Assembly (NCBI GenBank): GCA_041675145.1
Contig: JBAYUK010000002.1
Location: 88,530-152,529, forward strand
Direction of reading: 5' to 3'
DNA length: 64,000 nt
From: Patescibacteria group bacterium
GTDB lineage: Bacteria; Patescibacteriota; JACPGU01
Under the pieces are notes generated by a model, which was not told the DNA's origin, ran no database searches, and saw only the letters and a list, made by a program, of their open reading frames with translations. The position numbers were made by a program, and so were the translations under genes. This document shows, piece after piece, positions 5,953 through 55,031 of the stretch (positions are counted from its first letter, which is position 1; each line of letters starts with the position of its first letter).

Positions 5953-6012
5953 ATATTTTAGACTTCCGATTCTTGATATGGTACTATATAGATATAGTAC
6001 TAATGAGCATGT

Positions 6013-6849: not shown

Positions 6850-6881
6850 AAGCTTTTTAGCTAATTAAATAAGGAGTTTGT

Positions 6882-18435: not shown

Positions 18436-18453
18436 GGTGTTTTTTTTGAAAAA

Positions 18454-18527
18454 TCCTCCCGGATGGACTTGAACCATCGACCCCCACCTTATAAGGGTGG
18501 TGCTCTAACCAACTGAGCTACAGGAGG
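18454..18527 (-). tRNA. tRNA-Ile (anticodon UAU).
   Basis: The reverse complement reads CCTCCTGTAGCTCAGTTGGTTAGAGCACCACCCTTATAAGGTGGGGGTCGATGGTTCAAGTCCATCCGGGAGGA. The anticodon stem CCACC/GGTGG and loop CTTATAA give anticodon TAT. The T-loop TTCAAGT and acceptor pairing are intact. Confidence 0.75.
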
Positions 18528-18592
18528 ACAATAAAAGGAAAATAGTAATTTATCCTCCTGTTATGCTAGCAAAAAATGCTATATTTTGCAAT

Positions 18593-34511: not shown

Positions 34512-34516
34512 GACAC

Positions 34517-34595
34517 GGAGGAGTGGTTGAAGGCGCAGTCTTGGAAAGACTGTAGGCTCGCAAGGGTCTCGCAGGTTCGAATCCTGTCTCCTCCG
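34517..34595 (+). tRNA. tRNA-Ser (anticodon GGA) with a long variable arm; the D-arm appears atypically short in my manual folding.
   Basis: GGAGGAG-TG-GTTGAAGGCG-CAGTC-TTGGAAA-GACTG-TAGGCTCGCAAGGGTCTC-GCAGG-TTCGAAT-CCTGT-CTCCTCC-G. The acceptor, anticodon stem-loop (GGA), class II variable arm and T-arm are clear. I could not place the 5' D-stem strand. Confidence 0.6.
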
Positions 34596-34726
34596 TTGCT
34601 ACTTTTTATTAGGAGTATTTTGTAGTATACAGTTTTTTTGCTATATAAAGCTATAAAAAAGTGATTGAAAAAAACCTATTTTCATGTTATAATAATTTCA
34701 AATATTACAAAAGTAAACACAAAGAT

Positions 34727-35434
34727 ATGACACAAAAAGGTACATTCTTGCAAAGGATCAGTGTGCGTAAAGGAGCACTCGCTCTCGCTTCTTTTCTCGT
34801 TGTTGCTAGTGCGGGTAGTTATGCTCTTGCGAGTAATACTTCAAACTTTCAGCTCACAATTAACCCAGGTACTCTCTCAATTGATATCGTAAATGGATCG
34901 TATGTAACTGTTGCTAGTCCAACTGTAGTATTTGGTGCAGTAACAACTGGATTCTCTTGTCAGACACCAGGAGCGACAGGTACTTTTGGTACAGCAACTC
35001 AAAAGCTATACATCGCTAACCCGGATGCGGCAGATAATGGTTGGACAGCATCACTTGCTGCCTCTGACCCAACAGACGAGTGGTCAGATACGGTGCCTTT
35101 AGACTTTAATGACCCGACTGGAACTCCATCAGGGTGTGCCGACGGAGCTGACGCAGACTCAAGTAAAGGAAAGATGACAGTAAATGCATCTGGTGCAACT
35201 CTCGCTAACGGTCAATGTACTGGGTGTAACACTTCAAATGTAACGCTTGGTAGCTCGGCTTCTTTCAGTGAAGGTGTTCTTGATAGCGTAACGGTTGCTT
35301 CAGCAGCTGCTGCAGCGAACGATATTGCTGACTACACGGTTCAAGGAGTGGCAGTGTCACAGACTATTCCAAGTTCTCAGCCAGCATCATCGGGATATGA
35401 CATTAACATGGTTCTTTCAATTGTTGCTCTCTAG
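34727..35434 (+). CDS. Secreted Ser/Thr/Gly/Ala-rich surface protein; paralogous to the C-terminal domain of the 1248-aa protein at 36846..40592.
   Basis: Start moved to ATG 34727 (MTQKG…) ahead of a Sec signal peptide (…ASFLVVASAGSYALA|SN). Conserved blocks are shared with the giant protein: 'LDFNDPTG…ADGADADSSKGKMTVN…G…C…LGSSASFSEGV' versus 'FDFNDPTANAIDGADADSKGGQMTIN…GC…LGSSSSFSQGV'. The C-terminal endings are similar ('…SIVAL' / '…ITITAL'). Followed by a strong terminator. Confidence 0.6.
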   Translation: MTQKGTFLQRISVRKGALALASFLVVASAGSYALASNTSNFQLTINPGTLSIDIVNGSYVTVASPTVVFGAVTTGFSCQTPGATGTFGTATQKLYIANPDAADNGWTASLAASDPTDEWSDTVPLDFNDPTGTPSGCADGADADSSKGKMTVNASGATLANGQCTGCNTSNVTLGSSASFSEGVLDSVTVASAAAAANDIADYTVQGVAVSQTIPSSQPASSGYDINMVLSIVAL

Positions 35435-35456
35435 AAAAAGTTGAAAAAAATATAGA

Positions 35457-35487
35457 AAATCCAGCCTTGCGAGGCTGGATTTTTTTA
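35457..35487 (+). terminator. Rho-independent terminator (AATCCAGCC-TTGCGA-GGCTGGATT plus TTTTTT).
   Basis: 9-bp GC-rich inverted repeat plus T6. Confidence 0.75.
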
Positions 35488-35522
35488 TGCTAGACTGAGG
35501 GCTAATACATACGAAGTAGTTT

Positions 35523-36776
35523 ATGAAATATACCAACATACAATCTCTCTTTTTTATTGCCTTAATCCCGGTACTTATAGGGGCATTTATTCCTACAGCT
35601 AAGGCTGTTGAGTATGGTGGTGTTGGAGGAAGGCCAGCATATCCACGGTCTGACAATCCTCGTACAGACTCTATTTTCGTACATAACGCGAATCCAGGAG
35701 ATGTTATTAAAGAAGGTGTCACAGTTATTAATAACACCAACGAGTCAAAAACACTTTCTGTATACGGTGGAGACTATATCCCATCTTCAGGTGGCGGGTT
35801 TGCATGTCGTCAGTTTACTGAACAACAGACAGAGGTCGGTTCATGGATTGAACTAAGTAAAAAGGAGGTAACACTCGAGCCGAAAACAAATGAGCTTATT
35901 CCTTTTACGATTAGTGTTCCCAAAAACGCAAGTGTAGGTGAGAATGACGGATGTATCTTAATTGAGGAAAAGAAAATGAGCGCAGTGGATGACGGTGAAA
36001 AAGCAGGAGTTAGTCTTCGCTTTAGAACTGGACTGCGCGTAGTAGTTACTATCCCAGGAGACATTGTAAAAAAACTTGATATATTAAACTTCAACTCAAC
36101 TAAGAAAGGTGACAAAAATATATTGCTTTCAGCTCAGGTAAAAAATAGCGGAAATGTTTCTATTGATACCGATGTAAAGATAGTTACTCGTGATATGTTT
36201 AACCGCGAGATAGCAGATCATGGTGGTGAGTTCTCTATTCTAAGAGGGCAGACTAGTGATTATAACTTTGAACTCAAGCAGCCGTTTTGGGGAGGACTTT
36301 TCTCGGCAAACCTTTCTGCGGCGTATGACCCAAGTATCACAGTTGAGTTAGGAAAGAAGTCAGATGAAAAAAGAGTAACGCTTACTGCTAAGAAGATCGT
36401 GTTCTTTTCTCCTCCAACACCACTTGCGGCCGTTATTGAGATAGTGGTTCTATTGTTGGTACTATTTCTTCTTACTAGGGTTATTAAGAAAAAGAAACAA
36501 GACCGATGGATAGCTAATAAATGGGTGCGATATACGGTACAAAAAGGAGATACAATAAACAGCTTAGCTTCAAAACACTCTGTTTCTTGGAAGTTGATAG
36601 TAAGAGCAAACAATATGCAGCCACCGTTTGTTATGGAACAGGGGAACACTATCCGACTTCCATTGATCAAAAAGAATAGGGATGTGCTCGCTGTGCTACC
36701 AGTAAAAAAACCGACAGCTTCTAAAGTAAAAAAAGTACCAAGTAAGACAAAGTTAAAGACTAAAACAAAGAGGTAG
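35523..36776 (+). CDS. Signal-peptide protein with a ~290 aa extracytoplasmic beta-rich domain, a single C-terminal TM helix, then a LysM domain and a Lys-rich tail.
   Basis: Signal peptide 'LFFIALIPVLIGAFIPTAKA|VEYGG'. TM segment 'LAAVIEIVVLLLVLFLLT' followed by 'RVIKKKKQ'. LysM motif 'YTVQKGDTINSLASKHSVSWKLIVRANNM'. The architecture resembles the membrane-anchored partner proteins of Firmicute WxL-type surface loci, but I cannot confirm homology. Confidence 0.55.
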   Translation: MKYTNIQSLFFIALIPVLIGAFIPTAKAVEYGGVGGRPAYPRSDNPRTDSIFVHNANPGDVIKEGVTVINNTNESKTLSVYGGDYIPSSGGGFACRQFTEQQTEVGSWIELSKKEVTLEPKTNELIPFTISVPKNASVGENDGCILIEEKKMSAVDDGEKAGVSLRFRTGLRVVVTIPGDIVKKLDILNFNSTKKGDKNILLSAQVKNSGNVSIDTDVKIVTRDMFNREIADHGGEFSILRGQTSDYNFELKQPFWGGLFSANLSAAYDPSITVELGKKSDEKRVTLTAKKIVFFSPPTPLAAVIEIVVLLLVLFLLTRVIKKKKQDRWIANKWVRYTVQKGDTINSLASKHSVSWKLIVRANNMQPPFVMEQGNTIRLPLIKKNRDVLAVLPVKKPTASKVKKVPSKTKLKTKTKR

Positions 36777-36784
36777 AAATTCAT

Positions 36785-36816
36785 AAGAAAGTGGGGTAAA
36801 ACCCACTTTCTTTGTT
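36785..36816 (+). terminator. Probable terminator hairpin (AAGAAAGTGGG-loop-CCCACTTTCTT) after the LysM protein gene.
   Basis: 11-bp inverted repeat; the downstream T-tract is weak (TTTGTT). Confidence 0.45.
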
Positions 36817-36845
36817 CCTGGTATTTGTTATAATTTTATATATAA

Positions 36846-39800
36846 ATGTATGAGATAAACAAACAAAGAAAAAGCATTTTTTCTATCGTAAAGCTACCTT
36901 CGTTGGTTGCTATTCTTTTCGTTTTAGAGATAGTACTTTCTTTCGTAGCGCAGTTCCCAAATCAACCGATTGCAGGTAGTGCACAAGCAGTTAGTTTAAC
37001 CCAGGGAGATGGGCTTGCAGTGTATGGGGTTTCTGCCAATACAACACCTCAAGTAAGAACATATACTGGAGCTACGAATGTATTTAGCTCTGCCTCTAGT
37101 ACGGTTAGCGGTAGTGCGCCACTATCTCTAGTCAACAAAACTTCGCCTACAAAACAGGAGGCAATCATTGGATATATAAACTCGAGTGGAACTTTACAAA
37201 TAGCGTGCTATAACGGAACAAGCTACACAAACGAATGGAGTGTGAGTGTAGGTGGCACTGGTACAGATCGTCGCTTTGATATTGCGTACGAAACTAGTAC
37301 TGGCGACGTTATGGTGTTGTACTCTACCAACACTGCGACTACTAACGAGTTGGCCTATCGAACTAAGTTAGGCTCTACAGGCTGCGGTGCAGCAAACTGG
37401 GCAAGTGCAACTAATCTTGACCCGGTAAGAACCTCTGGAGTTGTGCAGTGGGTGAAGATGGCATGGGATCGTCGTTCATCTTCTAATCTCATCACTGCTA
37501 TCTGGGCAGACGCCAACTCTGACCTTTCTGCGCAAGTGTGGTCTGGAACAGCTTGGAGTAACGAGCCATCAGCAGCGCTTGCAACAACGCTTGATGTTAT
37601 CTCTGCTGCCCAGGATGTGGAAGATTTTGATGTGGAGTACGAATCTTTATCTGGTGATGTAAAGGTAGTCTGGGGAGTTGCGCAGGGAAATAATAATCCT
37701 GGAGTACGAGAGTCTAATTGTACTGGAGGAATATCTAGTTGTACCTGGAGTGCAGTTGCTACACCAGCGACATTTAATGATGATGCAACTAACCTTGATC
37801 TTTCTGCTAACCCCCTAACTGACGAAATGGTATTTGCTTCAATTGGACAAGATCAACATGACCTACAGATTGGGTACTGGTCGGGTTCTGCCTGGACAAA
37901 TGATGCAAACGTAGATACTTCCTCAGATACACCACTTACAAAAACAAAAAAAGTCGCTACAGGGTGGGTGAAGACAGGGAGCACTACCAGAAGTATTATT
38001 GTTTATGCAGATGGTAACGGTACGACTACGAACCTTAGCTACTATACTGGGAATTCTGGGACATTTAGTGCGGGAACTGACTTTACTATGAGTCCAGTGC
38101 CTGGAGCTTTCCGTTCATTTGATATACAACAAGATCCGTATAGTTCGGATAGGATTTTGCTAACATATAGCGACGCAAACAACGATCTATTTGCTAAAAG
38201 ACTAGTTATAACAGCTGGCCCAACGTTTACATGGACTAACGCTGATTCTAGTTCGGCACTTGAAACTAGCCTCGGGCAAGCAGCGCCATTGGATTTTTCG
38301 TACGCTTTTTGGCGCTATGCTCCAAGGTTTAATGAAGCAGGATACCGTTGGTTTGAAAACAATAACTCAACTAACGCAGGAGTTGCTACAGCAAATCCTA
38401 GTGCAAGTGATGAGTTTGTTCGTGACATGAAAGCTGACTCTCAATATCTATACGCAGTAGGGCACGATACAAGCCCAGGTAATAACCAGTGGAGAATTGA
38501 AAAGAGATATATTACAAACTATGACTACGACACGAGTTTTGGAACAAGTGGAGTGATGGCCAACAATCCTTCATCAGGAGATGATCGAGCTCTAGAATTA
38601 GATATAGATACAACTTCCATGTATATTGCTGGGTATGATGTTACTCCAGGTAACGCTAGATGGAGAATTGAAAAAAGAAGTAAGTCTACTGGGTTTACTG
38701 ATTTTGGTTTTGGAACGCTCGGCGTTATTACGACCGATGTGAGTGGTGGCGATGACTATGCTCGCAGTATTACTGCTGACTCTAGTTATATCTACATTGC
38801 AGGAGTTGATGCAACGAGCTCAAATAATAGATGGCGGATAGAAAAAAGAAATAAGTCAAATGGGACTCTTGTCTCTGGCTTTGGTACTTCAGGTGTTGTA
38901 ACGAATAATCCAAGTGCAGGAGACGACCAGCCGTTGTCTATTGTGGTTAGTGGTAGCTATATCTATACGGCAGGTTATGATTCGACTCCTGGTAATAAGC
39001 AAATTCGTATAGAAAAAAGACTAACTAGTACTGGTGCTCTTGATACTGGGTTTGGTGTGAGTGGTGTCGTAACGAGTAACCCAGGTAGTGGAGATGATGT
39101 AATAAATAAAGTAAAAACTGATGGCACATATCTGTATGTTGCAGGATACGATTCTTCTGTTGGGGCAGCTAACCTCCAGTGGCGTTTTGAAAAAAGAAAT
39201 GTTTCAGATGGGTCTCTAGTTGGAGCATTCGGTTCATCAGGAGTTGCTACCAGTAACCCTACTAGTTCAAATGATGAGCTGTATGACTTTGACTATGATG
39301 GTACATATATATACCTCGGAGGTTCTGATGCAATCTCTGGTGGTGACTATGAATGGCGAATAGAAAAGCGATCCATATCTACAGGTAGTTTGGATGGTTC
39401 TTTTGGAATATCTGGAGTTATAACTAGTAACCCAGGTTCAGGATTAGATCGAATTCGTGCTGTAAAACTTTCTTCAACTAGTATTCTGACCGGTGGAGCT
39501 GGAACTAATTCTACAAATCTTGAATGGAGATTTGAAAAAAGATCTTCTACTGGTGGAGCACTTGCAAAGGTGTTGGCTGCACAGAATACTGCTGCAACTT
39601 TAACTACTATTAATGATACTTTTCGTTTACGACAACTCATAACAGTGACTGCAAATAATTTCCAGGCAGATCAGAGTTTTAAGTTGCAGTTTGCAACTAA
39701 GTCAGGAACTTGTGATACTGCTTTTTCTGGTGAAACATATACAGATATTACTGCTTCAACAGCCATTGCGTATTATAATAATGTAACTCCTACTGATGGT

Positions 39801-40592
39801 ACTGCAACAGTGAGTAATCCTCAGGATCCGACTACAGGAAATACAATAAATTACCAAACCTACGAAGAAGCAAACAACTTCACTAACTCTCAATCAACAA
39901 TTCCGGTAAACCAGGATGGTCTTTGGGATTTTTCATTATATGATAAGACGGCTACAGTAAATACTTCATACTGTTTTCGTGTAGTGAAGAGTGATGGTGT
40001 ACTGCTGGATACTTATACTCAGGTTCCGGAAATAATTACTGCTCCAGGAGCACTAACAACTGATATAGTGGATACAGGTGGCAGTTCAGTATCGAGCCCA
40101 CTTGTTACTATGAGCACAGCAATGAGCGCTAAGAACTTCCAAACTACTACTGGGACGCTTGGTACCTCTTCAGAAAAAGTCAGGGTCAACAACACAACTT
40201 CCAATCCTAAGTGGCAGATTACAATAGCTGCATCTGGAGGAGTTACTTCTCTTTGGAATGGAACAGGTAACACTTTTGATTTTAATGACCCAACAGCTAA
40301 TGCAATAGACGGAGCAGATGCTGACTCGAAAGGTGGCCAGATGACAATTAACCCTGCAGGGGGTAGTATTGCTCCTAAGTCTGGGTGTACAAATACAGGA
40401 CTAAGCTTGGGAAGTTCATCTAGTTTTTCACAAGGAGTAACAGATGCTATTTCACTCATGTCGGCAGGTGCTAGTGCGGGCGTGAACTGTTTCTGGGATT
40501 TACTCAATGTTGCCATTTCTCAGACAGTTCCCTCATTTCAGCCTTCGGATACATATTCAAGAGCTATGACTATAACAATAACTGCACTCTAA
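36846..40592 (+). CDS. Giant secreted surface protein (1248 aa) in three parts: N-terminal signal peptide and Trp-rich region; about seven tandem ~60-aa beta-propeller-type repeats ending in 'WRIEKR'; and a C-terminal domain paralogous to the 34727..35434 protein.
   Basis: Tandem protein repeats of the form 'G(T/V)SGV(V/I)T(S/N)NP(S/G)SGDD…YIY(I/T)AGYD(S/V)TPGN..WRIEKR..S.G.L…FG' run from aa ~515 to ~905. The repeats are in frame and diverged at the DNA level. The signal peptide is 'LPSLVAILFVLEIVLSFVAQ'. Confidence 0.7.
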   Translation: MYEINKQRKSIFSIVKLPSLVAILFVLEIVLSFVAQFPNQPIAGSAQAVSLTQGDGLAVYGVSANTTPQVRTYTGATNVFSSASSTVSGSAPLSLVNKTSPTKQEAIIGYINSSGTLQIACYNGTSYTNEWSVSVGGTGTDRRFDIAYETSTGDVMVLYSTNTATTNELAYRTKLGSTGCGAANWASATNLDPVRTSGVVQWVKMAWDRRSSSNLITAIWADANSDLSAQVWSGTAWSNEPSAALATTLDVISAAQDVEDFDVEYESLSGDVKVVWGVAQGNNNPGVRESNCTGGISSCTWSAVATPATFNDDATNLDLSANPLTDEMVFASIGQDQHDLQIGYWSGSAWTNDANVDTSSDTPLTKTKKVATGWVKTGSTTRSIIVYADGNGTTTNLSYYTGNSGTFSAGTDFTMSPVPGAFRSFDIQQDPYSSDRILLTYSDANNDLFAKRLVITAGPTFTWTNADSSSALETSLGQAAPLDFSYAFWRYAPRFNEAGYRWFENNNSTNAGVATANPSASDEFVRDMKADSQYLYAVGHDTSPGNNQWRIEKRYITNYDYDTSFGTSGVMANNPSSGDDRALELDIDTTSMYIAGYDVTPGNARWRIEKRSKSTGFTDFGFGTLGVITTDVSGGDDYARSITADSSYIYIAGVDATSSNNRWRIEKRNKSNGTLVSGFGTSGVVTNNPSAGDDQPLSIVVSGSYIYTAGYDSTPGNKQIRIEKRLTSTGALDTGFGVSGVVTSNPGSGDDVINKVKTDGTYLYVAGYDSSVGAANLQWRFEKRNVSDGSLVGAFGSSGVATSNPTSSNDELYDFDYDGTYIYLGGSDAISGGDYEWRIEKRSISTGSLDGSFGISGVITSNPGSGLDRIRAVKLSSTSILTGGAGTNSTNLEWRFEKRSSTGGALAKVLAAQNTAATLTTINDTFRLRQLITVTANNFQADQSFKLQFATKSGTCDTAFSGETYTDITASTAIAYYNNVTPTDGTATVSNPQDPTTGNTINYQTYEEANNFTNSQSTIPVNQDGLWDFSLYDKTATVNTSYCFRVVKSDGVLLDTYTQVPEIITAPGALTTDIVDTGGSSVSSPLVTMSTAMSAKNFQTTTGTLGTSSEKVRVNNTTSNPKWQITIAASGGVTSLWNGTGNTFDFNDPTANAIDGADADSKGGQMTINPAGGSIAPKSGCTNTGLSLGSSSSFSQGVTDAISLMSAGASAGVNCFWDLLNVAISQTVPSFQPSDTYSRAMTITITAL

Positions 40593-41500
40593 TGAATAAT
40601 AAATACCACATGTTTATTGTTATTCTGCTTCTTGCTGTAGCGCCAGTTATTGTTCGAGCTGGGTCAAATGCATTGTTTCAGCTAGAGATTCAAAACAGTG
40701 CAACACCAACGCTGAGCACACCAAGTAGCCAAGGAGGGGGAAGTAGTATAGGAAACCAAGTAAATAACCTACCTCTTGGTTCGTACAGTTTCAGTGGAGT
40801 TAGTTTTAGTGGAGCGAAGATAGAAATAATGAAAGATGGGGAAGCGTACACCCAGGTCGTGGCTGATGCGGGTGGAAACTTTTCTGGATTAATTAGCGGA
40901 TTAAATCAAGGTACATATACTTTTGGATTCATTGTGTATGATAAGAATAACCATCATAGTGATCTTGTTACGCAAGGTATTTCAATTACAGGTTCCGGGT
41001 TAGTGACTGGCTCAATAGTTGAATTACCGCCTACCGTTACAATTATTGAAGATGAAGGTAAAAAATTAAACCTCACTGGATATGGTAAGAAAGATTCTAA
41101 TATAGATATTGTAATTAGTAGTAATAGTAAAGAAATAAGTAAAATATCAGCACAAAGCTTAAACGATGGGTACTATATCGTAGATATTGGAAAATTAGAG
41201 TTTGAGGAAGATTATTATGATGTTTTTGTGTATGAGTCTCGGGCAGGAGCTGTAGCGAAGACAAAGATATCTTTTTCTGTTAGCAATAAAAGAGTTATTC
41301 TAAAAGAAGGAGAGTGTTTAGTAAGAGCAGACTTGAACTGCGACGGAAGAGTTAATCTAATAGATTTCTCAATTGCATCGTATTGGTATAATCGAACACT
41401 TACTAATGATTTTTTGGATATAGAAAAAGGTAGGTTAAATGGAGACGGACAAGTAAATCTTATAGATTTTAGTATTATGGCTTACTTCTGGACAGGATGA
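40592..41500 (+). CDS. Secreted protein with a C-terminal dockerin-like module (two calcium-binding repeats).
   Basis: Signal peptide 'MFIVILLLAVAPVIVRA'. The C-terminus 'DLNCDGRVNLIDFSIASYWYN…RLNGDGQVNLIDFSIMAYFW' shows the duplicated D-x-N-x-D-G-x-V-N-x-x-D F-loop pattern of type I dockerins. Confidence 0.65.
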   Translation: MNNKYHMFIVILLLAVAPVIVRAGSNALFQLEIQNSATPTLSTPSSQGGGSSIGNQVNNLPLGSYSFSGVSFSGAKIEIMKDGEAYTQVVADAGGNFSGLISGLNQGTYTFGFIVYDKNNHHSDLVTQGISITGSGLVTGSIVELPPTVTIIEDEGKKLNLTGYGKKDSNIDIVISSNSKEISKISAQSLNDGYYIVDIGKLEFEEDYYDVFVYESRAGAVAKTKISFSVSNKRVILKEGECLVRADLNCDGRVNLIDFSIASYWYNRTLTNDFLDIEKGRLNGDGQVNLIDFSIMAYFWTG

Positions 41501-42366
41501 AGATATATTGGATAATTATAATTTTTGTTTTCGCATTATATATCCCATCGCAAGTTCGGGCTGTTGCTGGTGATCCCCAGCTTTTTTTTACTAAAAAAGG
41601 CACCATACAGAACGTTAAAAATGGAGAGAGATTTTCAGTTGACCTTGTACTGTCTTCGAGTACTCCTATTAATGTAGTTAACGGTATTGTTGATATATCT
41701 GGACCGGCTGAAGTTGAGCAGATCATTACTGGTAGCTCAATTATTTCTCAGTGGATTGAGCCAGTTCAGATTAGGAAAGATATAAGCACCATTCCTTTTT
41801 CTGGTGTAGTTTTCGGAGGATACGCTGGGGACATAGGGCAGGTATTCACTCTTGTTTTAAAATCTAAGAATCCTGGAGAAATACTTGTCACAGTAAAAAA
41901 TACTCAAGGCTATATTAATGATGGAAATGGAACTTATATAGCACTTAAATCAGCTCCTCTAAAAATTAATGTAACGAGCGAAGACTCACATATTGTATCT
42001 CCTGTCATACAAGACACTACGCCTCCAGAGGAATTTAGTCCAGAAGTGTACCGTGACTCAGTGTTGACTGAGAATAAATGGCTCGTTTCATTTATTACTC
42101 AAGATAAAGGATCTGGTATTGAGAGATACATGGTAAAAGAAGGATCAGGTGATTTTGTGGATGCAGCCAGTCCATATGTCCTAAAGAGTGATCCAATAAA
42201 CGAAGAGATAACAGTAAGAGCAATAGATAGGTTAGGAAATATGCGTGATGCGGTCGTTACTCCCCTTGATAGTAAGGAACAAAATCCGTATATATTCCTA
42301 CTGTTTGTTGCTGGCTTATTACTGGTATCATTAACTTGGCGTAATAAGACTAAAATAAAGAAGTAG
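41497..42366 (+). CDS. Membrane-anchored cohesin-like protein (signal peptide plus ~140-aa beta-sandwich plus C-terminal TM anchor).
   Basis: The block 'VNGIVDISGPAEVEQIITGSSIISQWIEP…GQVFTLVLKSKNPGEILVTV' matches the cohesin pattern (…Yd.s.Le.v.v..G.i……G.l..i.Fk.k..G). The C-terminal hydrophobic anchor is 'YIFLLFVAGLLLVSLTW' followed by 'RNKTKIKK'. Confidence 0.55.
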   Translation: MKIYWIIIIFVFALYIPSQVRAVAGDPQLFFTKKGTIQNVKNGERFSVDLVLSSSTPINVVNGIVDISGPAEVEQIITGSSIISQWIEPVQIRKDISTIPFSGVVFGGYAGDIGQVFTLVLKSKNPGEILVTVKNTQGYINDGNGTYIALKSAPLKINVTSEDSHIVSPVIQDTTPPEEFSPEVYRDSVLTENKWLVSFITQDKGSGIERYMVKEGSGDFVDAASPYVLKSDPINEEITVRAIDRLGNMRDAVVTPLDSKEQNPYIFLLFVAGLLLVSLTWRNKTKIKK

Positions 42367-42370
42367 AGTT

Positions 42371-43249
42371 ATGCAGATTATAGTATATAAAACATTTCTT
42401 TCTTTCTGGGCTCTACTGCTCGTGATTTTTTCACTTGTAAGTCCAGTATTCGCAGTAAGCTCACAAGCGAGCATATTTATTGTTGGCCCAGCACAGGTAG
42501 AACAAGGACAGGTCTTTTCTTCATCTGTATTTGTAAGTTCTGCTGTCTCAATGAATGCAGTCAGTGCTACTATTTCCTATGATTCTTCGATGCTTGACTT
42601 AGTTCAGGTAGTAAAAGCCCCATCAATTATAAGTCTATGGGTACAGGAACCTGAGCTAGTACCGGGGTCTGTAAGGTTCTCTGCTACTATTTTAAACCCT
42701 GGGTATCAGGGGGATGGCGGGCAACTGGTTACTCTCCAGTTTAAACCAAAGAATACTGGAATATCCACCGTTAGTGTTACTAGTGGTATGATCTTAGCAA
42801 ACGACGGTTTAGGTACAGATATTACTGGACCACTAGGTTTATATCGTTTCGAGGTGAACCCATTAGCTATTAAGAAGCCTATATTAGAACCAGAGCAAAA
42901 GATTCCCGCAGAGAATGGTCTACCTTCGGGTGGTGAGTCAGATGCATTATCTGGGCCAGGGGTAGATATTATACAAAAGGCTATACAGCAACTAGATTTA
43001 AACAATGTTCCAAGTGTAGATATCCAGAAGTTAACACAAGCGCTGCCAGTCGAATATATCTTTCAAGATCAAAGAGTTAAAACCACACTCGCTGTGGTAG
43101 AACAAAAAGTTAAGCAGTACCAGGTAGCGACAGTAACATCTGTAGCGGTGAATACCGTTTCGATTAGTTTTTCTGTTGTCTACTGGGTTAGACTACTGAG
43201 ATCTCGTAGGCTTCTAGCTAGTCTGGCTAAAAAGATCGCAAATCTTTAA
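42371..43249 (+). CDS. Second membrane-anchored cohesin-like protein, paralogous to the preceding gene.
   Basis: 'VSATISYDSSMLDLVQVVKAPSIISLWVQEP…GQLVTLQFKPKNTGISTVSV' aligns block-for-block with the previous protein and with the cohesin consensus. It has a signal peptide and a C-terminal hydrophobic segment 'VAVNTVSISFSVVYWV'. Confidence 0.55.
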   Translation: MQIIVYKTFLSFWALLLVIFSLVSPVFAVSSQASIFIVGPAQVEQGQVFSSSVFVSSAVSMNAVSATISYDSSMLDLVQVVKAPSIISLWVQEPELVPGSVRFSATILNPGYQGDGGQLVTLQFKPKNTGISTVSVTSGMILANDGLGTDITGPLGLYRFEVNPLAIKKPILEPEQKIPAENGLPSGGESDALSGPGVDIIQKAIQQLDLNNVPSVDIQKLTQALPVEYIFQDQRVKTTLAVVEQKVKQYQVATVTSVAVNTVSISFSVVYWVRLLRSRRLLASLAKKIANL

Positions 43250-47085: not shown

Positions 47086-47871
47086 ATGAACATAATACAT
47101 GCCATCATACTTGGAGTTGTAGAGGGTATAACTGAGTTTCTCCCTGTTTCGTCTACTGGGCACTTAATACTGTCCTCAAAGCTCTTAGGGCTTACTCAAG
47201 ATGACTTCATGAAGACATTTGAGATTGCGATACAGAGTGGGGCTATCCTGGCTGTAATCGCCCTGTATTGGAAGAAGTTCTTCAATAGTAATCTACTGAA
47301 AAAAACTGCCGTAGCCTTTATTCCTACTGCGGTTATTGGATTTGCATTATATAAAATTATAAAAAATGTTTTCTTATCTAGTGACCTTATCGTCCTGGTA
47401 GCTTTGTTTACTGGGGGGTTGGTGCTTATTCTTATTGAAATGTGGTTGAGTAAGAGGAGTGAAGAAGGAAAAGAAGAGGTCACTGATATGGCAAACTTAT
47501 CATATAAACAAGCAGCTATAATAGGTACTGCCCAGGCATTAGCTGTAATACCGGGTGTATCTAGGTCTGCTGCAAGTATTATAGGTGGAAGGGTAATTGG
47601 TTTATCGAGAAGCCTTGCTACAGAGTTTTCTTTCTTCCTAGCTGTGCCTACTATATTGTTTGCTACCCTGTATGATCTAAAAAACGGTATTGGATCTATT
47701 TCTTACGATCAAGGAGTAATTCTTGGAATTGGTCTTTTAATTTCGTTCATTACTGCAATTTTCGTGATAAAGTTGTTCCTTTCGTATATCAGGAAGCATG
47801 ATTTCACTGTTTTTGGGGTATACCGTATTGTTGTATCAGTGTTTTTATATATCGTGCTATTTAGGATGTAA
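47086..47871 (+). CDS. uppP: Undecaprenyl-diphosphatase (UppP/BacA).
   Basis: 'GVVEGITEFLPVSSTGHLIL' and 'PGVSRSAASIIGG' are signature motifs. It is a polytopic membrane protein. Confidence 0.9.
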   Translation: MNIIHAIILGVVEGITEFLPVSSTGHLILSSKLLGLTQDDFMKTFEIAIQSGAILAVIALYWKKFFNSNLLKKTAVAFIPTAVIGFALYKIIKNVFLSSDLIVLVALFTGGLVLILIEMWLSKRSEEGKEEVTDMANLSYKQAAIIGTAQALAVIPGVSRSAASIIGGRVIGLSRSLATEFSFFLAVPTILFATLYDLKNGIGSISYDQGVILGIGLLISFITAIFVIKLFLSYIRKHDFTVFGVYRIVVSVFLYIVLFRM

Positions 47872-48844: not shown

Positions 48845-50170
48845 ATGAAACTTATAAATATATCAGTGCAGAAACTAGAAAAGATAAGCGCTTACTTTTT
48901 TTTAACGTTTATATTTTTTCTTCCTTTCATGAAAAGAAAGGAATTTTACCTACCTGATTCTTTTTGGAATGGAAATTTTATAGAGTATGTAACTCCGTCT
49001 ATATATGTATCGGAGCTATTTCTATTGGTTGCGCTTGGTATTTTCTTACTTCTTTTCATTTTATTTAAAGAAAAATATATCTTTAAAAGTATTTTAACTA
49101 GAAATTTAACTAGGTTGTTTATACTTTTTCAGGTTTTTTCTCTAGTCTCTTTATTTTTTTCTCAAACGCAAATTGTTAGCTTATACTACATTCTTGTATC
49201 TTGGGTACTCTTTATTACGATTTTGTACTTAACTTACTTTTTAAGAAGTATGAGCAACATAAGAAGTCTTACGAATGTCTTCCTGGTAGCTATGACGATC
49301 CAGGGTGTTATCGCTATGCTGCAGTTTATAACAGGCCATTCTATTGGGCTGCATGTTATAGGAGAACAATACCTATCTTCAGAAACCATAGGAGTAGCTA
49401 AGGTGGTTTTTGGCTCCGTAAAGCATATAAGGCCTTACGGTACTTTTTCTCATCCAAATATACTAGGTTACTTTACTGCCATAGCAATATACCTTGGCCT
49501 AAACGACTATATATCTCTAGAAGGTAACAGAAGGACTTTACGAATAATTACGCTGTTTATCCTTGCTCTTACGCTTCTTTTGACCTTCTCGCGTATATCT
49601 TGGATTGTAGCAACGATATTCGTTGTAGGTATTTACCTAAAAAAGTTTCATAAGACACTTCACATAAGAAACTTTTTTAAAGAAAATACTAAACCGCTTA
49701 CTTATCTTATTGTATTTAGTACTTTACTCGTTGGAGCAGTTATGTGGTATCGAGTTAACCCACTTAACCCACTTACCTGGGAGTCTTTAGTCGTTAGGTA
49801 TCAGCTTTATATTCATTCGTTAAAAATGTTGTTATTGTATCCGCAAGGAGTAGGAATTGGAAATTACTCAATTATTCTAACTAAAACATACTCATCTCTC
49901 CCATTCTGGATGTTGCAACCAGTTCATAATACGTTTTTGCTAGCAATAAACGAGCTAGGGTTGGGACTTGTAGTTCTTATGCTTGCCGCGTTGCCTTACG
50001 CTTGGAAGAAGCTACAGAAGACGACATATGAGAATAAGCTACTCATTACAGGTCTACTTATATTTATGATATTTGATCATGCATTTTGGGATATTAGGCA
50101 AGCGCAATACTTATTTGTATTAGTCATTGGTCTGTGCATCTCCCGAATAGAAATAGGTCGTAAAACATGA
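48845..50170 (+). CDS. Polytopic membrane protein of the O-antigen ligase/polymerase (Wzy_C/WaaL-like) family.
   Basis: More than 10 predicted TM helices. 'LTFSRISWIVATIFVVG' resembles the Wzy_C 'SRG…W' loop region. First gene of the glycan cluster. Confidence 0.55.
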   Translation: MKLINISVQKLEKISAYFFLTFIFFLPFMKRKEFYLPDSFWNGNFIEYVTPSIYVSELFLLVALGIFLLLFILFKEKYIFKSILTRNLTRLFILFQVFSLVSLFFSQTQIVSLYYILVSWVLFITILYLTYFLRSMSNIRSLTNVFLVAMTIQGVIAMLQFITGHSIGLHVIGEQYLSSETIGVAKVVFGSVKHIRPYGTFSHPNILGYFTAIAIYLGLNDYISLEGNRRTLRIITLFILALTLLLTFSRISWIVATIFVVGIYLKKFHKTLHIRNFFKENTKPLTYLIVFSTLLVGAVMWYRVNPLNPLTWESLVVRYQLYIHSLKMLLLYPQGVGIGNYSIILTKTYSSLPFWMLQPVHNTFLLAINELGLGLVVLMLAALPYAWKKLQKTTYENKLLITGLLIFMIFDHAFWDIRQAQYLFVLVIGLCISRIEIGRKT

Positions 50171-50183
50171 TATAATAGCTCAT

Positions 50184-51605
50184 ATGGCTGGTTATACAAA
50201 AAAGATTGCCTACAACACTCTCATTCAGTTTGTGGGCAAGGCAATCACTACAACTATCTCTATAGTTACTCTAGCGACCATTGCTCGATATCTGGGTGTT
50301 AGTCTATATGGAGAATACGCTACTGCCTTCGCCTTTATAGGCTTTTTTTCTATTTTGGCTGATATGGGCTTCTATACTATTGCAGTTAAGGAGATGGCAG
50401 CACGGCCAGATGAAAAAGACTACATAATAGGCAATATCCTGCTGATGCGAATAGCGCTCGCTCTTGCCTTTGTGGTAATTGCTCCTATTGTTGGCTGGTT
50501 GATTCCTGTGTATTCTCTTGCAGTGAAACAGGGAATACTGATTATTTGTTTGTCTACATTCTTTGTTCTCATAAACCAAATCTTTGTTAGTGTTTTTCAG
50601 TACTTTTTAAGGATGGATAAGCTGGTGTTAGCAGACTCTATCTCTCGCGCAGTTATGCTAGTAGTTGTACTAATTGCAGTCTACCTAAAACTACCTCTAC
50701 CATTCTTCTTTTTAGCGCACCTTTTGGCAAATATCGCTCTATGTTTACTGTCGTATCTGTTTGCGCGTAAGTTTGTTACGGTCAGACTCAAGTACGATTC
50801 AAAATACTGGAAGTATATAGCGAAAGAAGCATCAACTCTTGGCCTCGTTCTTGTTCTAGGTTTCGTGTACTTTAAGGTAGATTCTCTAATGCTGTCTCTA
50901 CTTGCAGATAGTAGGGCAGTGGGTATATATAGTGCATCGTATAAGGTTCTGGAGATTATGATAACAATACCAGCAATGTTTATGGGGTCAGTTTTTCCTC
51001 TAATAGTTAGGTATATAAAAGATAAAGACGAGAGACTTCAGGGTAGTTTTCAAAAAAGTTTTGATTTTATGAGCTTGCTTGCCCTACCTATGTTACTTTC
51101 TCTTGTTGTGTTAGCAAAGCCTATTATGCTACTCCTGGCTGGAGGAGAATTTACTGATTCAATTCTCGTACTCCAGTACTTATCTTTTGCTATCTTTATA
51201 ATATTTTATGGCACTATCTTTGGAAACTTTGTAGTGGCTGCAAACCTTCAGAAAAAGATGATATACGTATATCTTCTTGGTATGGTATTTAATACTATTA
51301 CTAATGCGTATTTAATATCTCGTTTCTCTTACTACGGTGCTGCTCTCACGACAGTTGTAACTGAGTTACTCGTTGCTTCTCTTACTTTTATAATAATTAA
51401 GAGACACTTTGGTTTTGTTCCTAACTTAAGGATCTTTTTTAAGGCCCTCACCGCTTCAGTCGTAATGGCAGCGTTGCTGTACGTTACTCGTGGCGCTATT
51501 CACGTCCTTTTGCTTGCACCAATTGGCCTGTTTCTCTATATAGGGGTGTTATATGTCCTAAAGGCTATTAACCGAGATACGTTAAAAACTATTTTTAAAA
51601 GTTAA
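50184..51605 (+). CDS. wzx: Wzx-type oligosaccharide flippase (polysaccharide biosynthesis protein, MOP superfamily).
   Basis: 'KKIAYNTLIQFVGKAITTTISIVTLATIARYLGVSLYGEY' is the typical Wzx N-terminus. About 12 TM helices. Confidence 0.7.
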   Translation: MAGYTKKIAYNTLIQFVGKAITTTISIVTLATIARYLGVSLYGEYATAFAFIGFFSILADMGFYTIAVKEMAARPDEKDYIIGNILLMRIALALAFVVIAPIVGWLIPVYSLAVKQGILIICLSTFFVLINQIFVSVFQYFLRMDKLVLADSISRAVMLVVVLIAVYLKLPLPFFFLAHLLANIALCLLSYLFARKFVTVRLKYDSKYWKYIAKEASTLGLVLVLGFVYFKVDSLMLSLLADSRAVGIYSASYKVLEIMITIPAMFMGSVFPLIVRYIKDKDERLQGSFQKSFDFMSLLALPMLLSLVVLAKPIMLLLAGGEFTDSILVLQYLSFAIFIIFYGTIFGNFVVAANLQKKMIYVYLLGMVFNTITNAYLISRFSYYGAALTTVVTELLVASLTFIIIKRHFGFVPNLRIFFKALTASVVMAALLYVTRGAIHVLLLAPIGLFLYIGVLYVLKAINRDTLKTIFKS

Positions 51606-51609
51606 GTAT

Positions 51610-52746
51610 ATGCGAGTATTGGTTTTTAAATCTTCTTGGGTGTTTGGAGGAGGAGAGATATATAATCTCCAGCTTTTTAATATCTTAAAAGAACTACATA
51701 TTGAAACTGTTCTCTTTTCTTACAATGATGACTTCATTAAGAAGTCCGAAGGTACTGGTGTTACAACAAAAAAAGTGTTCTGGGGTAGTGAGCCAAGCTC
51801 TCTTAGGTACCTAGCACAGTTCTTTATATTAATGCCGTACAACTACCTGGTATTTTTTATACTGTTGTTTAAATATAGAGGGAGTGGTAACGTAGTCTTT
51901 TTCCAAGGTATCCATGACAAAATAATTGGAACAGGTATAGCACGCATTCTTGGTTATAGGGTTTATTGGTTGGAGCACCTTTCTTTGATGCCTTGGATTG
52001 TAAGGTGGGACAAGAGAGTTATTAAATATCTGTACAATAAGAGCTCAAAAAAAGTAGACGGTGTTATTGCTATATCTCAGTCGGTAAAGAAAGAGCTTAT
52101 TTCTTACCTAGCTATTAACAAAGAAAAAGTAAGTGTTCTTTACTACGGCATAAACCTTAATCTTCCAAATCGTAACCCTTCTGAAAAAGTTGAGGAGTTC
52201 TTAAAAAATAATACAGGTACAGTTATCGGGTATGTTGGTCGTCTTCATAACGAAAAGGGACTATCCATACTAATACAAGCCTTTAATGAAGTACAAAAAG
52301 ACTTACCATCCAAGCTTATTCTCGTTGGAGAGGGAGAAGATCGTCTGAAGTTAGAAGAGTTGGTGGAGGAGATGGGAATAACTGATAAAGTTTTATTTAC
52401 TGGCTTTCAGGAGAATGTTTATTCTTGTATCGAAAAGGTGGATGTTTTTGTTTTACCCTCATTAGTACGAGAATCTCTAGGGATAGTATTACTTGAGGCA
52501 ATGTCGTTGAAAAAGATATGTGTAGCAAGTCGCATTGGGGGAATTCCTGAGATTATACAGAACGGTATAAACGGGTATTTGGTTGGCCCTGGAGATGTAT
52601 CAGAGCTATCAAGGGTACTATATAGTATTCATAGTTTGTCTAAAGAAAATACGCATGCAATACAGGAAAATGCATATGCTACTATCATAGAAAAATTTAG
52701 TTACCAAGAGATGAAGAAATTAGTTTCGAAGTTGCTACACATATGA
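51610..52746 (+). CDS. Glycosyltransferase family 4 (GT-B, RfaB-like).
   Basis: 'GRLHNEKG' and the 'SLGIVLLEAMS' E-x7-E motif are present. Confidence 0.75.
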   Translation: MRVLVFKSSWVFGGGEIYNLQLFNILKELHIETVLFSYNDDFIKKSEGTGVTTKKVFWGSEPSSLRYLAQFFILMPYNYLVFFILLFKYRGSGNVVFFQGIHDKIIGTGIARILGYRVYWLEHLSLMPWIVRWDKRVIKYLYNKSSKKVDGVIAISQSVKKELISYLAINKEKVSVLYYGINLNLPNRNPSEKVEEFLKNNTGTVIGYVGRLHNEKGLSILIQAFNEVQKDLPSKLILVGEGEDRLKLEELVEEMGITDKVLFTGFQENVYSCIEKVDVFVLPSLVRESLGIVLLEAMSLKKICVASRIGGIPEIIQNGINGYLVGPGDVSELSRVLYSIHSLSKENTHAIQENAYATIIEKFSYQEMKKLVSKLLHI

Positions 52747-53846
52747 AAATAGGAATAGATACAAGACTGCCATTAAAAGAGAAAACGGGTATGGGCTATT
52801 TAGCTCAGAATTTAGTGAGTGGCATGGTAGACATCTCTAAAAAAAATAGTGATGAGGTTACCCTTATTGGAGACTCAATAGGTAACTATAATAATGTTAA
52901 GTACATTAAGCTTTCAGGAATAGTGAAGAGAGGCCTAAACTTTATATGGAGATACCTGCCAGTACCAGTTAACTTGCTTGGAAAGCCATTTGACGCTTTT
53001 CTGTTCCCTAACTTTGTAGATTTCCCGGTAAGAGCAAAAAGAAAGGTAGTTATTATTGGTGACTTATCTTTTTTGAAATATCCGGATTTTATTGAGAAGA
53101 AAAATAGAAATTATCTTTTGAAGTACGTACCGAAAGCAATACAGCGTTCTGATCATATACTTGCGATTACGCAAGTAGTAAAAGATGAGATAGTGGAGTA
53201 TTATGGCGTTCCAGAGGCTAAGATAAGTGTTATGCACTTGGCTCCTAATAAAGATATTTCTTTTACAGGTAATAGTATTGAGCTGAACAGAGTAAGAGAT
53301 AAATACGGTATACCAGATAACTACTTTTTATCAGTTGGTACAATCGAGCCAAGAAAGAACCACGCTGTATTATTGGAGGCAATGGCAAAAATGAAAAGTA
53401 ATACTGACTCACGGTATGTATTAGTAATAGCAGGAAAAAAAGATTCTGATTACGAAAGGTTACAGTTACTTGCAAGTAAGTTACAAATAGAAGACAGAGT
53501 TATTTTTACGGGTTATATAGAAGAGGGAGACTTTTCTGCGCTATATAGTGGGTCTAAGATATGTATCTTCTCTTCACTGTATGAGGGTTTTGGCATACCA
53601 GTGATTGAGGCTATGAGCTGCAGAGTTCCAGTCATACTCTCAAACATACCTACCTTCCACGAAATAGCGGGAGAAAACGCTTTGTATTTTGACCCAGAAA
53701 ATGCAGAACAGCTAGTGGAGAAGATACGATTAATTCTAGAGAACCCAGATTTGAGACAGAACTTAGTGGATTCGGCTTCATCTTCTGTTAAAAGATTTAC
53801 CTGGGAAAGATCGGCACAGATAGCATACAGAGCTCTTTTTAAATAG
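52743..53846 (+). CDS. Glycosyltransferase family 4.
   Basis: 'GTIEPRKNH…EGFGIPVIEAMSC' is present. 4-nt overlap with the upstream gene. Confidence 0.75.
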   Translation: MKIGIDTRLPLKEKTGMGYLAQNLVSGMVDISKKNSDEVTLIGDSIGNYNNVKYIKLSGIVKRGLNFIWRYLPVPVNLLGKPFDAFLFPNFVDFPVRAKRKVVIIGDLSFLKYPDFIEKKNRNYLLKYVPKAIQRSDHILAITQVVKDEIVEYYGVPEAKISVMHLAPNKDISFTGNSIELNRVRDKYGIPDNYFLSVGTIEPRKNHAVLLEAMAKMKSNTDSRYVLVIAGKKDSDYERLQLLASKLQIEDRVIFTGYIEEGDFSALYSGSKICIFSSLYEGFGIPVIEAMSCRVPVILSNIPTFHEIAGENALYFDPENAEQLVEKIRLILENPDLRQNLVDSASSSVKRFTWERSAQIAYRALFK

Positions 53847-53870
53847 GGTAGGTTACTGTAGAATACATAT

Positions 53871-55031
53871 ATGCTTATAGGATTTGACTGCCGCATAATT
53901 AGAGATAAAAACCCAGCCGGAATCTCCTGGGTTGTTTTAGAGTCGTTGCGTAAGATACTCTCTCTCGATCGTAAAAATGAATACCTCTTAATATTCGACA
54001 GTATCGAGATAAAGGACTATGTGCTGCACTACTTACGGCACATTAAAAAACAGTATCGGGTTATGATTGTGCCTTTCAGTTTACTTGGTGTTAAAAATTT
54101 AATACACCTGCCTGCTGTGCTTGAATCAAAGAACATAGATGTCTACTACTTGCCGTACTACTTTACTACGCCTTTCCATAAGAAAAGCTATAAAGTCGTC
54201 TTAACGGTTTTTGACCTAATTCATTTCTTCTATCCCAAGCTTAAGATGGGATTAGGAAGAAAGCTTTTTCACTTATTTAAACTTGCACCGTACCTTGTAC
54301 TAAGAAGAGCAGATAAGATTATTACTATCTCTATAAACACTTCCAGAGATTTAATACATATGTTTCGTGTTCCTTCTAGAAAAATTAAGATGATATATGT
54401 AGGTGTCTCTGAAAGATTTAGGAAAGTAGACATGGTACTTGCTAAGAAGCTTATGAGGGAGAAGTACTCTATTCAAAAAAACTATATCCTTTACGTAGGA
54501 AGAAACGAACCACATAAGAATATAAAAGCTTTAATAGGTGCATACGCTTTACTGCCACAGGCAGTGAGGGATAGTCATACGCTCGTATTAGCAGGAAAAG
54601 AAGAGGAGCGATATGCACAGTCAATTCACGACTTTGTAAACAAGCTACACATAACTGAGAATGTCGTATTTACTGGGTATGTAGATGAATCCGACTTACC
54701 GTATGTATATAGTGGAGCCAGTGTTTTTGTCTTCCCATCTTTTTATGAAGGCTTTGGCATGCCAGTTCTTGAGGCCATGGCATGTGAGGTCCCAGTTATT
54801 TGTTCAGATAGTTCTTGTTTGCCTGAGGCAGGTGGGAATGCTGCTTTATACTTCCACCCAGAAGATGTCCGTGATTTAACAAGTAAGCTATATGAAGTGT
54901 TGAGCAATTCAATGAAGAGAGAGGATATGATTAAGAAAGGAAAAGTACAGGTGAGAAAATTCACGTGGTTTAACTCTATTTCGCAACTCATAGAGTGCTT
55001 AGAGCAAGTAGTACACGGTGATATGAAATGA
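53871..55031 (+). CDS. Glycosyltransferase family 4.
   Basis: 'GRNEPHKNI…EGFGMPVLEAMAC' is present. Confidence 0.75.
   Translation: MLIGFDCRIIRDKNPAGISWVVLESLRKILSLDRKNEYLLIFDSIEIKDYVLHYLRHIKKQYRVMIVPFSLLGVKNLIHLPAVLESKNIDVYYLPYYFTTPFHKKSYKVVLTVFDLIHFFYPKLKMGLGRKLFHLFKLAPYLVLRRADKIITISINTSRDLIHMFRVPSRKIKMIYVGVSERFRKVDMVLAKKLMREKYSIQKNYILYVGRNEPHKNIKALIGAYALLPQAVRDSHTLVLAGKEEERYAQSIHDFVNKLHITENVVFTGYVDESDLPYVYSGASVFVFPSFYEGFGMPVLEAMACEVPVICSDSSCLPEAGGNAALYFHPEDVRDLTSKLYEVLSNSMKREDMIKKGKVQVRKFTWFNSISQLIECLEQVVHGDMK

Follow-up and report, generated by a model that had tools for sequence, protein, structure and literature searches.

The stretch of DNA analysed here (the window) comprises 64,000 nucleotides of contig JBAYUK010000002.1, which the NCBI record assigns to the metagenome-assembled genome of a Patescibacteria group bacterium. 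It contains six co-directional open reading frames (ORFs) on the + strand, from 34727 to 43249, numbered (i) to (vi) in their order along that strand. The region is probably a WxL/WxLIP surface-display system of a Patescibacteria type, coupled to a cohesin-dockerin pair. The ORFs were found as an earlier note on this DNA had read them, six consecutive + strand genes for exported proteins: an N-terminal hydrophobic segment of the export type is present in all six products, and (ii), (v) and (vi) also have a single C-terminal transmembrane (TM) segment. The genes and their main parts, including immunoglobulin (Ig)-like domains, are the following.

34661 (GTG, 257 aa) or 34727 (ATG, 235 aa) to 35434, + strand: gene (i), ORF
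35523-36776, + strand: gene (ii), ORF of 417 aa
Residues 29-177 of (ii): first Ig-like domain, PGBD/DUF916-like
Residues 185-296 of (ii): second Ig-like domain, HBD/DUF3324-like
Residues 300-333 of (ii): modelled TM helix, with the hydrophobic stretch at 292-325 (single TM)
36531-36662, + strand: LysM of (ii), residues 337-380 (PF01476, 35.8 bits against a cutoff of 20.9, 7.6e-9)
36846-40592, + strand: gene (iii), ORF of 1248 aa
38358-39545, + strand: seven tandem repeats of (iii), residues ~505-900, 57-59 aa each, with a WRIEKR motif
40023-40589, + strand: C-terminal WxL-like module of (iii), residues ~1060-1248, paralogous to (i)
40592-41500, + strand: gene (iv), ORF of 302 aa
41497-42366, + strand: gene (v), ORF of 289 aa
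42371-43249, + strand: gene (vi), ORF of 292 aa

The NCBI annotation names (ii) "LysM domain-containing", (iv) "dockerin type I repeat-containing" and (vi) "cohesin domain-containing", and lists (iii) and (v) as "hypothetical".

A module of about 190 aa is common to (i) and (iii). The paralogy between (i) and the C-terminus of (iii), already pointed out in the earlier note, is borne out by 37% identity over 215 aa (E 9e-20), and in a profile search the module of (iii) extends over residues 1034-1247 (P0292). The mature (i) protein, of about 200 aa and with an isoelectric point (pI) of 4.1, contains nothing but this WxL-like module. Of the columns in an alignment of 42 module sequences, 19 are invariant and about 50 nearly so, and the conserved positions comprise DFND, D142, D144, G148, W119 and four near-invariant Cys. 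Because of these many invariant columns, the module is not a generic low-complexity region, in agreement with the earlier expectation. Homologues of (i) number 640, with 50-78% identity in the best 120, and those named belong to Kerfeld-, Dojka- and Peregrinibacteria; no Pfam domain was found in the (i) homologues. An exhaustive search with the module profile (HMMER) yielded 714 representatives at 50% clustering, and the family is sharply bounded, 637 of the 714 lying below 1e-10. In 145 of the 150 best representatives, which are proteins of 161-1961 aa, the module ends at most 2 residues from the C-terminus. It occurs either alone, in small proteins, or C-terminal to variable passenger domains in large ones, where an SdiA-regulated propeller, Laminin_G_3, DUF2341 and Ig are among the passengers. 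The module profile gave no match to PDB sequences, and tblastn of (i) against plasmids gave no meaningful match. An assignment of (i) to TasA/camelysin (Peptidase_M73) was rejected: 4 of the 42 family members matched, at best with E 0.039, the window protein was not among them, and these weak matches are judged to be noise from the signal-peptide region. A Parcubacteria sequence (L077) returned by a motif scan is a chance match.

In the WxL systems described so far, small proteins are made up of the WxL domain and nothing else, and large ones have it strictly C-terminal, preceded by host-binding domains. A WxLIP gene lies next to the genes of both, the small WxL protein being acidic and the WxLIP basic (PMC9772566, PMC10599100). 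A WxL cluster has been defined as a minimum of one WxLIP together with two WxL proteins within four genes, all secreted (Hassan et al. 2023). More than 91% of the known WxL sequences are from Firmicutes, whose clusters include csc of Lactiplantibacillus plantarum and the Swp/Lwp/Duf loci and elr operon of Enterococcus (PMC1534035, PMC9772566, PMC10599100). Like these clusters, the window encodes a small module-only protein, a large protein with a C-terminal module and a protein with two Ig-like domains and a C-terminal TM segment, and the small protein is acidic and the putative WxLIP basic (pI 9.8). If the module is accepted as WxL-like, the architecture agrees with the published cluster definition, in the order (i)-(ii)-(iii). 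By analogy, (i) would be the counterpart of the "small WxL" protein and (iii) that of the "large WxL" protein.

Protein (ii) consists of a signal peptide, two Ig-like beta-sandwiches, a TM helix, a KKKK stretch, the LysM and a Lys-rich tail. Its AlphaFold2 (AF2) model, with a predicted local distance difference test (pLDDT) score of 87, contains the two beta-sandwiches, a long helix and the LysM fold. The architecture of a WxLIP is thus present, namely a secreted protein with PGBD and then HBD Ig-like sandwiches, followed by a C-terminal TM helix. In Pfam, (ii) reaches 23.0 bits against WxLIP_PGBD (DUF916, PF06030), below the cutoff of 27.3, and gives no match to PF11797 (DUF3324). It has 411 homologues across the candidate phyla radiation (CPR), with 43-61% identity in the best 120; Woese-, Dojka-, Falkow-, Levy- and Azambacteria are among those named. 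About a fifth of the homologues listed carry a precomputed PF06030 match, and NCBI names one of them DUF916. Searched by tblastn against plasmids, (ii) retrieved annotated DUF916 proteins of Arthrobacter, Clavibacter, Embleya, Cohnella and Paenibacillus (1e-9 to 5e-9). A hidden Markov model (HMM) of the (ii) family matches WxLIP genes that adjoin WxL genes, with E values down to 4e-30 in Actinobacteria and, in Firmicutes, of 7e-11 for Vagococcus, 4.5e-9 for Lysinibacillus and 4e-8 for Levilactobacillus, the alignment spanning both Ig-like domains and the TM segment. In the whole PDB, the family profile found the EfmWxLIP1 chains at E about 4e-7; according to the search tables, entries 9i1y and 9i25 (released 2026) contain the Enterococcus faecium WxLIP alone and with a "WxL domain surface protein" chain, respectively. 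By sequence and by predicted structure, (ii) is a homologue of WxLIP.

Unlike Firmicute WxLIPs, (ii) does not have the N-terminal motif NQIDKxxxYFDLK (PMC10599100). The aligned segment reads DNPRTDSIFVHNA and the family consensus is DNPRTESIFVHT, so that a different motif, DNPRTxSIFVH, is conserved at this position within CPR. A further difference is the additional LysM after the TM segment. The LysM and the membrane anchor proposed in the earlier note were both found; the role of the LysM in attachment to the wall is doubtful. Indeed, the LysM comes after the only TM segment and KKKK, and the ectodomain is of an extracellular type, with an invariant Cys pair (C95/C144), so the LysM is predicted to be cytoplasmic. 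The arrangement is kept in most CPR homologues of (ii) and is missing in L132 and in the WxLIP-like genes of a Saccharibacteria locus (L045). Some (ii) homologues have an insert inside the first Ig-like domain, at HMM positions ~111-117 (L001 10784-12124; L130 9775-11142). The insert of L001, from Kerfeldbacteria, is acidic and TSP3-like (DTDGDS...DTDGDGD), which suggests Ca2+ binding and would fit the conserved DGADADS motif of the module.

Whether the module itself is a WxL domain was examined by profile-profile comparison with hhalign, secondary structure not being included. WxL domains were gathered from genomes with a back-translated D.RGT.AGW.L pattern, giving 85 sequences, 55 of the Firmicute type and 30 of the actinobacterial type, and were compared with 144 diverse CPR modules. 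The comparison was informative only with these two deep sets; an early one between a shallow module alignment and a single WxL domain or the Paenibacillus family aligned only the Trp motif, at a probability of 0.3-5%. The 144 modules matched the 85 WxL domains at a probability of 85%, with E 6e-6, a score of 42.9 and 119 colinear columns. Reversed profiles scored 12-13 and block-shuffled ones 15-20 on average with maxima of 22-32 (22.4 against the score of 42.9), and the observed score lies more than 10 standard deviations above the block-shuffled null for the all-WxL set. As to the register, W106 of the module falls on the first WxL Trp, and its C-terminus, "SQTIP...Y.I.M.L.", falls on the second WxL strand, "L.VP...Y...LTW.L". 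The first WxL position of the module reads NGW(T)xSL, the Trp being mostly conserved and replaced by Phe in some members. The longest colinear alignment, of 149 columns, was obtained with the actinobacterial WxL variant (probability 79%). These variants end in "...GxYxAxLTLTLS*" and, like the CPR module, are devoid of the second Trp; unlike it, they keep D.RGT.AGW.L and match Firmicute WxL at 99.2%.

Several results weigh against a WxL assignment. Neither the window proteins nor the 42 family members match Pfam WxL (PF13731) at E<=1, whereas a Paenibacillus small WxL protein used for comparison scores 30.1 bits. The second Trp-x-Leu motif is missing, its position reading MVLSV/MTITI without Trp, and the D.RGT.AGW turn is replaced by NPDAADNGW. 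The HMMER module profile with its 714 representatives does not extend into Firmicute WxL proteins, and hhalign against Firmicute-only or Paenibacillus-only WxL profiles gives a probability of 4-5%. The AF2 model of (i), of moderate quality with a pLDDT of 75 and values below 55 in the conserved DFND...DGADADS region, did not retrieve the solved WxL chain 9i25_A. Against the display system as a whole speaks the predicted topology of the LysM of (ii), which would ill fit a simple wall-anchor role. A Paenibacillus WxL profile run against the PDB itself gave only spurious phage-needle matches. On sequence evidence, the module is probably related to WxL at a distance, without satisfying the family definition to the letter. 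The analogy drawn in the earlier note has been strengthened to a probable remote homology, while the PF13731 match and the second Trp-x-Leu are missing.

A different explanation of the same data is that the module is specific to CPR and unrelated to WxL, for example a Ca2+-dependent binder of glycans or wall beside a DUF916-type protein, its likeness to WxL being due to convergence, or an artefact of the composition of beta proteins rich in Ser, Thr and Gly. The missing Pfam match, the sharp boundary of the family and the failure of the (i) model to retrieve the solved chain are all as expected under this reading, and the DFND and DGADADS acidic motifs and the four Cys, for which no WxL counterpart is described, also speak for it. 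On the other hand, the profile-profile score is far above the null, the characteristic Trp and the C-terminal strand are both aligned with their WxL equivalents, and the three-part gene architecture and the strict C-terminal rule are the same as for WxL. Moreover, the partner gene (ii) is demonstrably a WxLIP, and its best-scoring relatives outside CPR are actinobacterial WxLIPs encoded beside the very WxL variant that gives the 149-column alignment. An unrelated module is consequently considered unlikely.

The conservation of the locus was followed in eight other CPR loci, one of which (L003) runs into the end of its contig after (ii), leaving seven complete. The trio of an (i)-like gene, a (ii)-like gene and a gene for a large protein with the C-terminal module recurs in all eight, and (iv)-like dockerin and (v)-like cohesin genes lie immediately downstream in four of the seven complete loci. 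The genes thus behave as one conserved surface system, as had been supposed. The most conserved component is (i), with 56-65% identity, against 33-54% for (ii); the (iv)- and (v)-like proteins mostly show 27-36%, with 49% over the short dockerin stretch of L132.

Related arrangements were also encountered elsewhere. A Candidatus Saccharibacteria metagenome-assembled contig (CAZVWQ010000004.1, L045 173-3809) contains a second CPR flavour of the system: its small WxL-like protein keeps the canonical D.RGT.AGW.L motif and ends in ...GDYTGTISFDFL*, and two tandem WxLIP-like genes follow (ORFs of 434 and 430 codons; HMM E ~2e-21 to 3e-21), each with a C-terminal TM segment and without LysM. In Kerfeldbacteria (GCA_016214565.1, L001 1-6907), a giant gene for more than 2699 aa and three genes for ~352-362 aa in a row precede the trio. 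One of the latter, at 5849-6907, has a weak WxLIP-like similarity to the (ii)-family HMM (E 1e-8), and by sequence these three may be additional DUF916-type proteins. On a Paenibacillus urinalis plasmid (NZ_CP118105.1, L006 5878-10711), a DUF916 protein and a small WxL protein are encoded together with a 1048 aa RCC1-repeat propeller protein that ends in a sub-threshold C-terminal WxL, a Firmicute parallel to (iii).

Protein (iii) is composed of a signal peptide, an N-terminal domain of unknown fold (~50-500), the seven repeats, a beta-rich linker domain (~900-1055) and the module. The repeat consensus is GFGTSGVVT.NP..GDD....I..D..YIY.AGYD....N..WRIEKR, and successive motifs are spaced by 57, 57, 57, 59, 58 and 57 residues. 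The beta-propeller proposed in the earlier note finds support in these seven repeats and none in Pfam, where no propeller family was matched even at E<=10 and with sub-fragments; the delta-60 repeat TIGR02608 scores 22.4 bits, below its cutoff of 76.5. From their number and length, the repeats probably form a 7-bladed propeller.

Signals around the first genes were searched for by pattern scanning and by folding with shuffle controls, and a tRNA gene adjoins them.

34516-34596: tRNA-Ser, directly upstream of (i)
34665-34693, + strand: promoter-like site of (i), TTGAAA, 17 nt spacer, TATAAT and TG extension, 11/12 matches
35454-35486, + strand: terminator-like hairpin with U7 directly 3' of (i), -19.1 kcal/mol, z -5.35, equalled by 0/200 shuffles
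36785-36812, + strand: second hairpin, 3' of (ii), -17.3 kcal/mol, z -3.54

The promoter-like site is the best match over the 10 kb scanned, and the ATG at 34727 starts 33 nt further downstream; since it fits this site, that ATG is preferred as the start of (i). A further TATAAT lies at ~36830, between the second hairpin and gene (iii). The stop of (iii) overlaps the start of (iv) by 1 nt (TAATG) and (iv) overlaps (v) by 4 nt (ATGA). From (iii) to (vi), the genes are coupled in translation or closely spaced. These overlaps argue for co-expression of the dockerin and cohesin genes with the large protein. The start of the region after a tRNA was recovered as the earlier note describes it; its bounding by strong terminators was not, as no terminator-like hairpin was found 3' of (vi), and strong hairpins instead follow (i) and (ii).

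By analogy with the Firmicute system, the membrane-tethered (ii) would span the wall and hold the modules of (i) and (iii). It probably contributes a beta-strand that completes the module sandwich, and its conserved, poorly modelled loop 150-167 may supply this strand. The repeat region of (iii), probably a propeller, and the N-terminal domain would face outward as an adhesin or ligand binder. Gene (i), with a strong promoter-like site and a terminator-like hairpin of its own, encodes the best conserved of the components and probably the most abundant subunit.

Such strand complementation also invites comparison with fibres. In an usher-less pilus, (i) would polymerise by donor-strand exchange, (ii) would act as a tethered PapD-like chaperone or base, and (iii) would be the tip adhesin, joined through its pilin-like C-terminal module. 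This reading overlaps with the WxL/WxLIP display system and adds polymerisation to it. It draws on the AF2 prediction of Hassan et al. that a strand of WxLIP inserts into the WxL domain and completes its sandwich, on the signals flanking (i), which an abundant-subunit gene might be expected to have, and on the greater conservation of (i) over (ii), (iv) and (v). Compared with the chaperone-usher pairs (PapD/FimC/CsuC with FimA/CsuA/B), the proposed strand complementation between partners is alike, and (i) weakly resembles the incomplete-Ig pilins in matches that are not significant. The differences are that no sequence relationship was detected, that the "chaperone" is membrane-anchored and that polymerisation is hypothetical. 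In addition, neither an usher nor a sortase gene is in the cluster, and the WxL papers cited describe no WxL filament (PMC9772566, PMC10599100). The conserved N-terminal strand TINPGTLSIDIV recurs as an internal element of (iii), within its module, and it therefore looks like a part of the fold and not like a free donor strand. The pilus is accordingly rated as quite improbable, and so is its fuller form, in which the cluster would be a monoderm, usher-less, chaperone-usher-like fibre tipped by (iii), with the cohesin-dockerin pair adding a second displayed protein. If true, it would be a previously unrecognised organelle for host attachment in Patescibacteria, and the LysM of (ii), in the cytoplasm, might tie the assembly of this organelle to signals inside the cell, from wall precursors or others.

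In the display system favoured here, the trio is joined by (iv), (v) and (vi). Protein (iv) is secreted and has one or more Ig-like regions and a C-terminal type I dockerin at residues 244-300 (nt 41321-41491). The dockerin, predicted beforehand, is confirmed by Dockerin_1 (PF00404, 24.5 bits against a cutoff of 22.9); residues 244-300 match the PDB dockerins 5nrm_B and 2y3n_B at E 1e-3, and both F-hand Ca-binding repeats are present, DLNCDGRVNLIDF and RLNGDGQVNLIDF. Of the two cohesin-like proteins that had been proposed, (vi) matches Cohesin directly (PF00963, 27.0 bits against a cutoff of 24.1, E 5.8e-6, profile positions 5-123 of 139, residues 38-146). Protein (v) has no direct Pfam cohesin match, so it is cohesin-like only by its paralogy to (vi). 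That paralogy (31% identity over 147 aa, E 2e-11) and the C-terminal membrane anchors, at residues 262-283 of (v) and 252-270 of (vi), agree with what was first described. A weak OmpL47-type domain is seen at 197-250 of (v), and neither (v) nor (vi) matched a PDB sequence. A binding of the dockerin of (iv) by the neighbouring cohesins would fit their conserved adjacency in four of the seven complete loci. The anchored cohesins (v) and (vi) would then bind (iv) through its dockerin, so that the Ig-like domains of (iv) are displayed next to (iii).

Cohesin-dockerin pairs are widespread outside cellulosomes. As in other non-cellulosomal pairs, the dockerin is of type I with both F-hands and the cohesins are on adjacent membrane-anchored proteins; unlike in these, the proteins bear no enzymes, a WxL-type trio is genetically coupled to the pair and one of the cohesins has no direct match. 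A miniature cellulosome-like complex for polysaccharide degradation, which the presence of both modules and the lectin-like domains of some large module proteins elsewhere, such as Laminin_G_3, might bring to mind, is hardly credible and was rejected, as enzyme domains are absent: the six proteins contain no glycoside hydrolase, carbohydrate esterase or carbohydrate-binding module above threshold, and (iv) carries only Ig-like regions beside its dockerin.

The flanks of the region are housekeeping genes, as judged from ORF translations, with recA (so named also by the NCBI annotation), recX and pyruvate kinase upstream and peroxiredoxin, dnaG and rpoD downstream. The GC content of the region is 0.406 against 0.401 in the rest of the window, while GC at third codon positions is somewhat lower (0.29 against 0.35 in flank genes). 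The region is the same as its flanks in GC, and the island of the earlier note is hence not compositionally distinct; a horizontally acquired island was rejected on this ground and because the trio is widely conserved in CPR. About 5.6 kb downstream lies a surface-polysaccharide cluster (48845-57576, + strand, GC 0.32-0.39), which encodes a Polysacc_synt flippase, three GT4 glycosyltransferases and two Wzy_C (O-antigen ligase/polymerase-like) proteins. It is preceded by a BacA gene (47086-47871); BacA and pyruvate kinase are also found near the (i) homologue of another locus (L129). Elsewhere in the window, a gene for tRNA-Ile with anticodon UAU adjoins two tandem tRNA genes with anticodon CAU (18453-18528 and 17772-17941, both on the - strand); tRNA-Ile(UAU) is uncommon in bacteria.

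Set beside known systems, the window shares with Firmicute WxL a module that aligns colinearly, the first Trp and the C-terminal strand falling on their counterparts. It differs in the points already weighed, that is, the missing PF13731 match, second Trp-x-Leu and D.RGT.AG turn and the extra acidic motifs and Cys, and also at the level of the cluster: the LPxTG protein is missing, a dockerin protein and cohesin anchors are appended, and the host belongs to Patescibacteria. The actinobacterial WxL/DUF916 loci (for example Micromonospora, Actinoplanes and Arthrobacter plasmids) supply the best-scoring non-CPR homologues of (ii). No LysM is apparent in the actinobacterial WxLIP-like ORFs listed, which were not checked systematically, whereas (ii) has one, and in the one actinobacterial locus whose annotation was consulted no cohesin or dockerin is annotated nearby, unlike in the window.

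Little is known of how Patescibacteria recognise and attach to their hosts; for Saccharibacteria, a part in this has been ascribed to type IV pili and to a few adhesins. In Southlakia epibionticum, a dockerin-domain protein was reported to be essential in a transposon-sequencing screen (PMC10633639). A full-text literature search returned no relevant paper linking Patescibacteria or CPR with WxL or DUF916. What is described here is a CPR-wide variant of the WxL/WxLIP system, new in its divergent module, its LysM-bearing WxLIP and its coupled cohesin-dockerin pair. With its core of three genes found again in many CPR lineages, the cluster is a candidate attachment apparatus. It offers a concrete candidate for host attachment in these lineages, a display scaffold with variable lectin, propeller and Ig passengers whose module is at present invisible to Pfam. 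The WxL/WxLIP system, hitherto regarded as belonging to Firmicutes and gut commensals, would be extended to a deep-branching, ultra-small lineage, and a second, divergent example that lacks the second Trp platform would help to test what defines the interaction between WxL and WxLIP.

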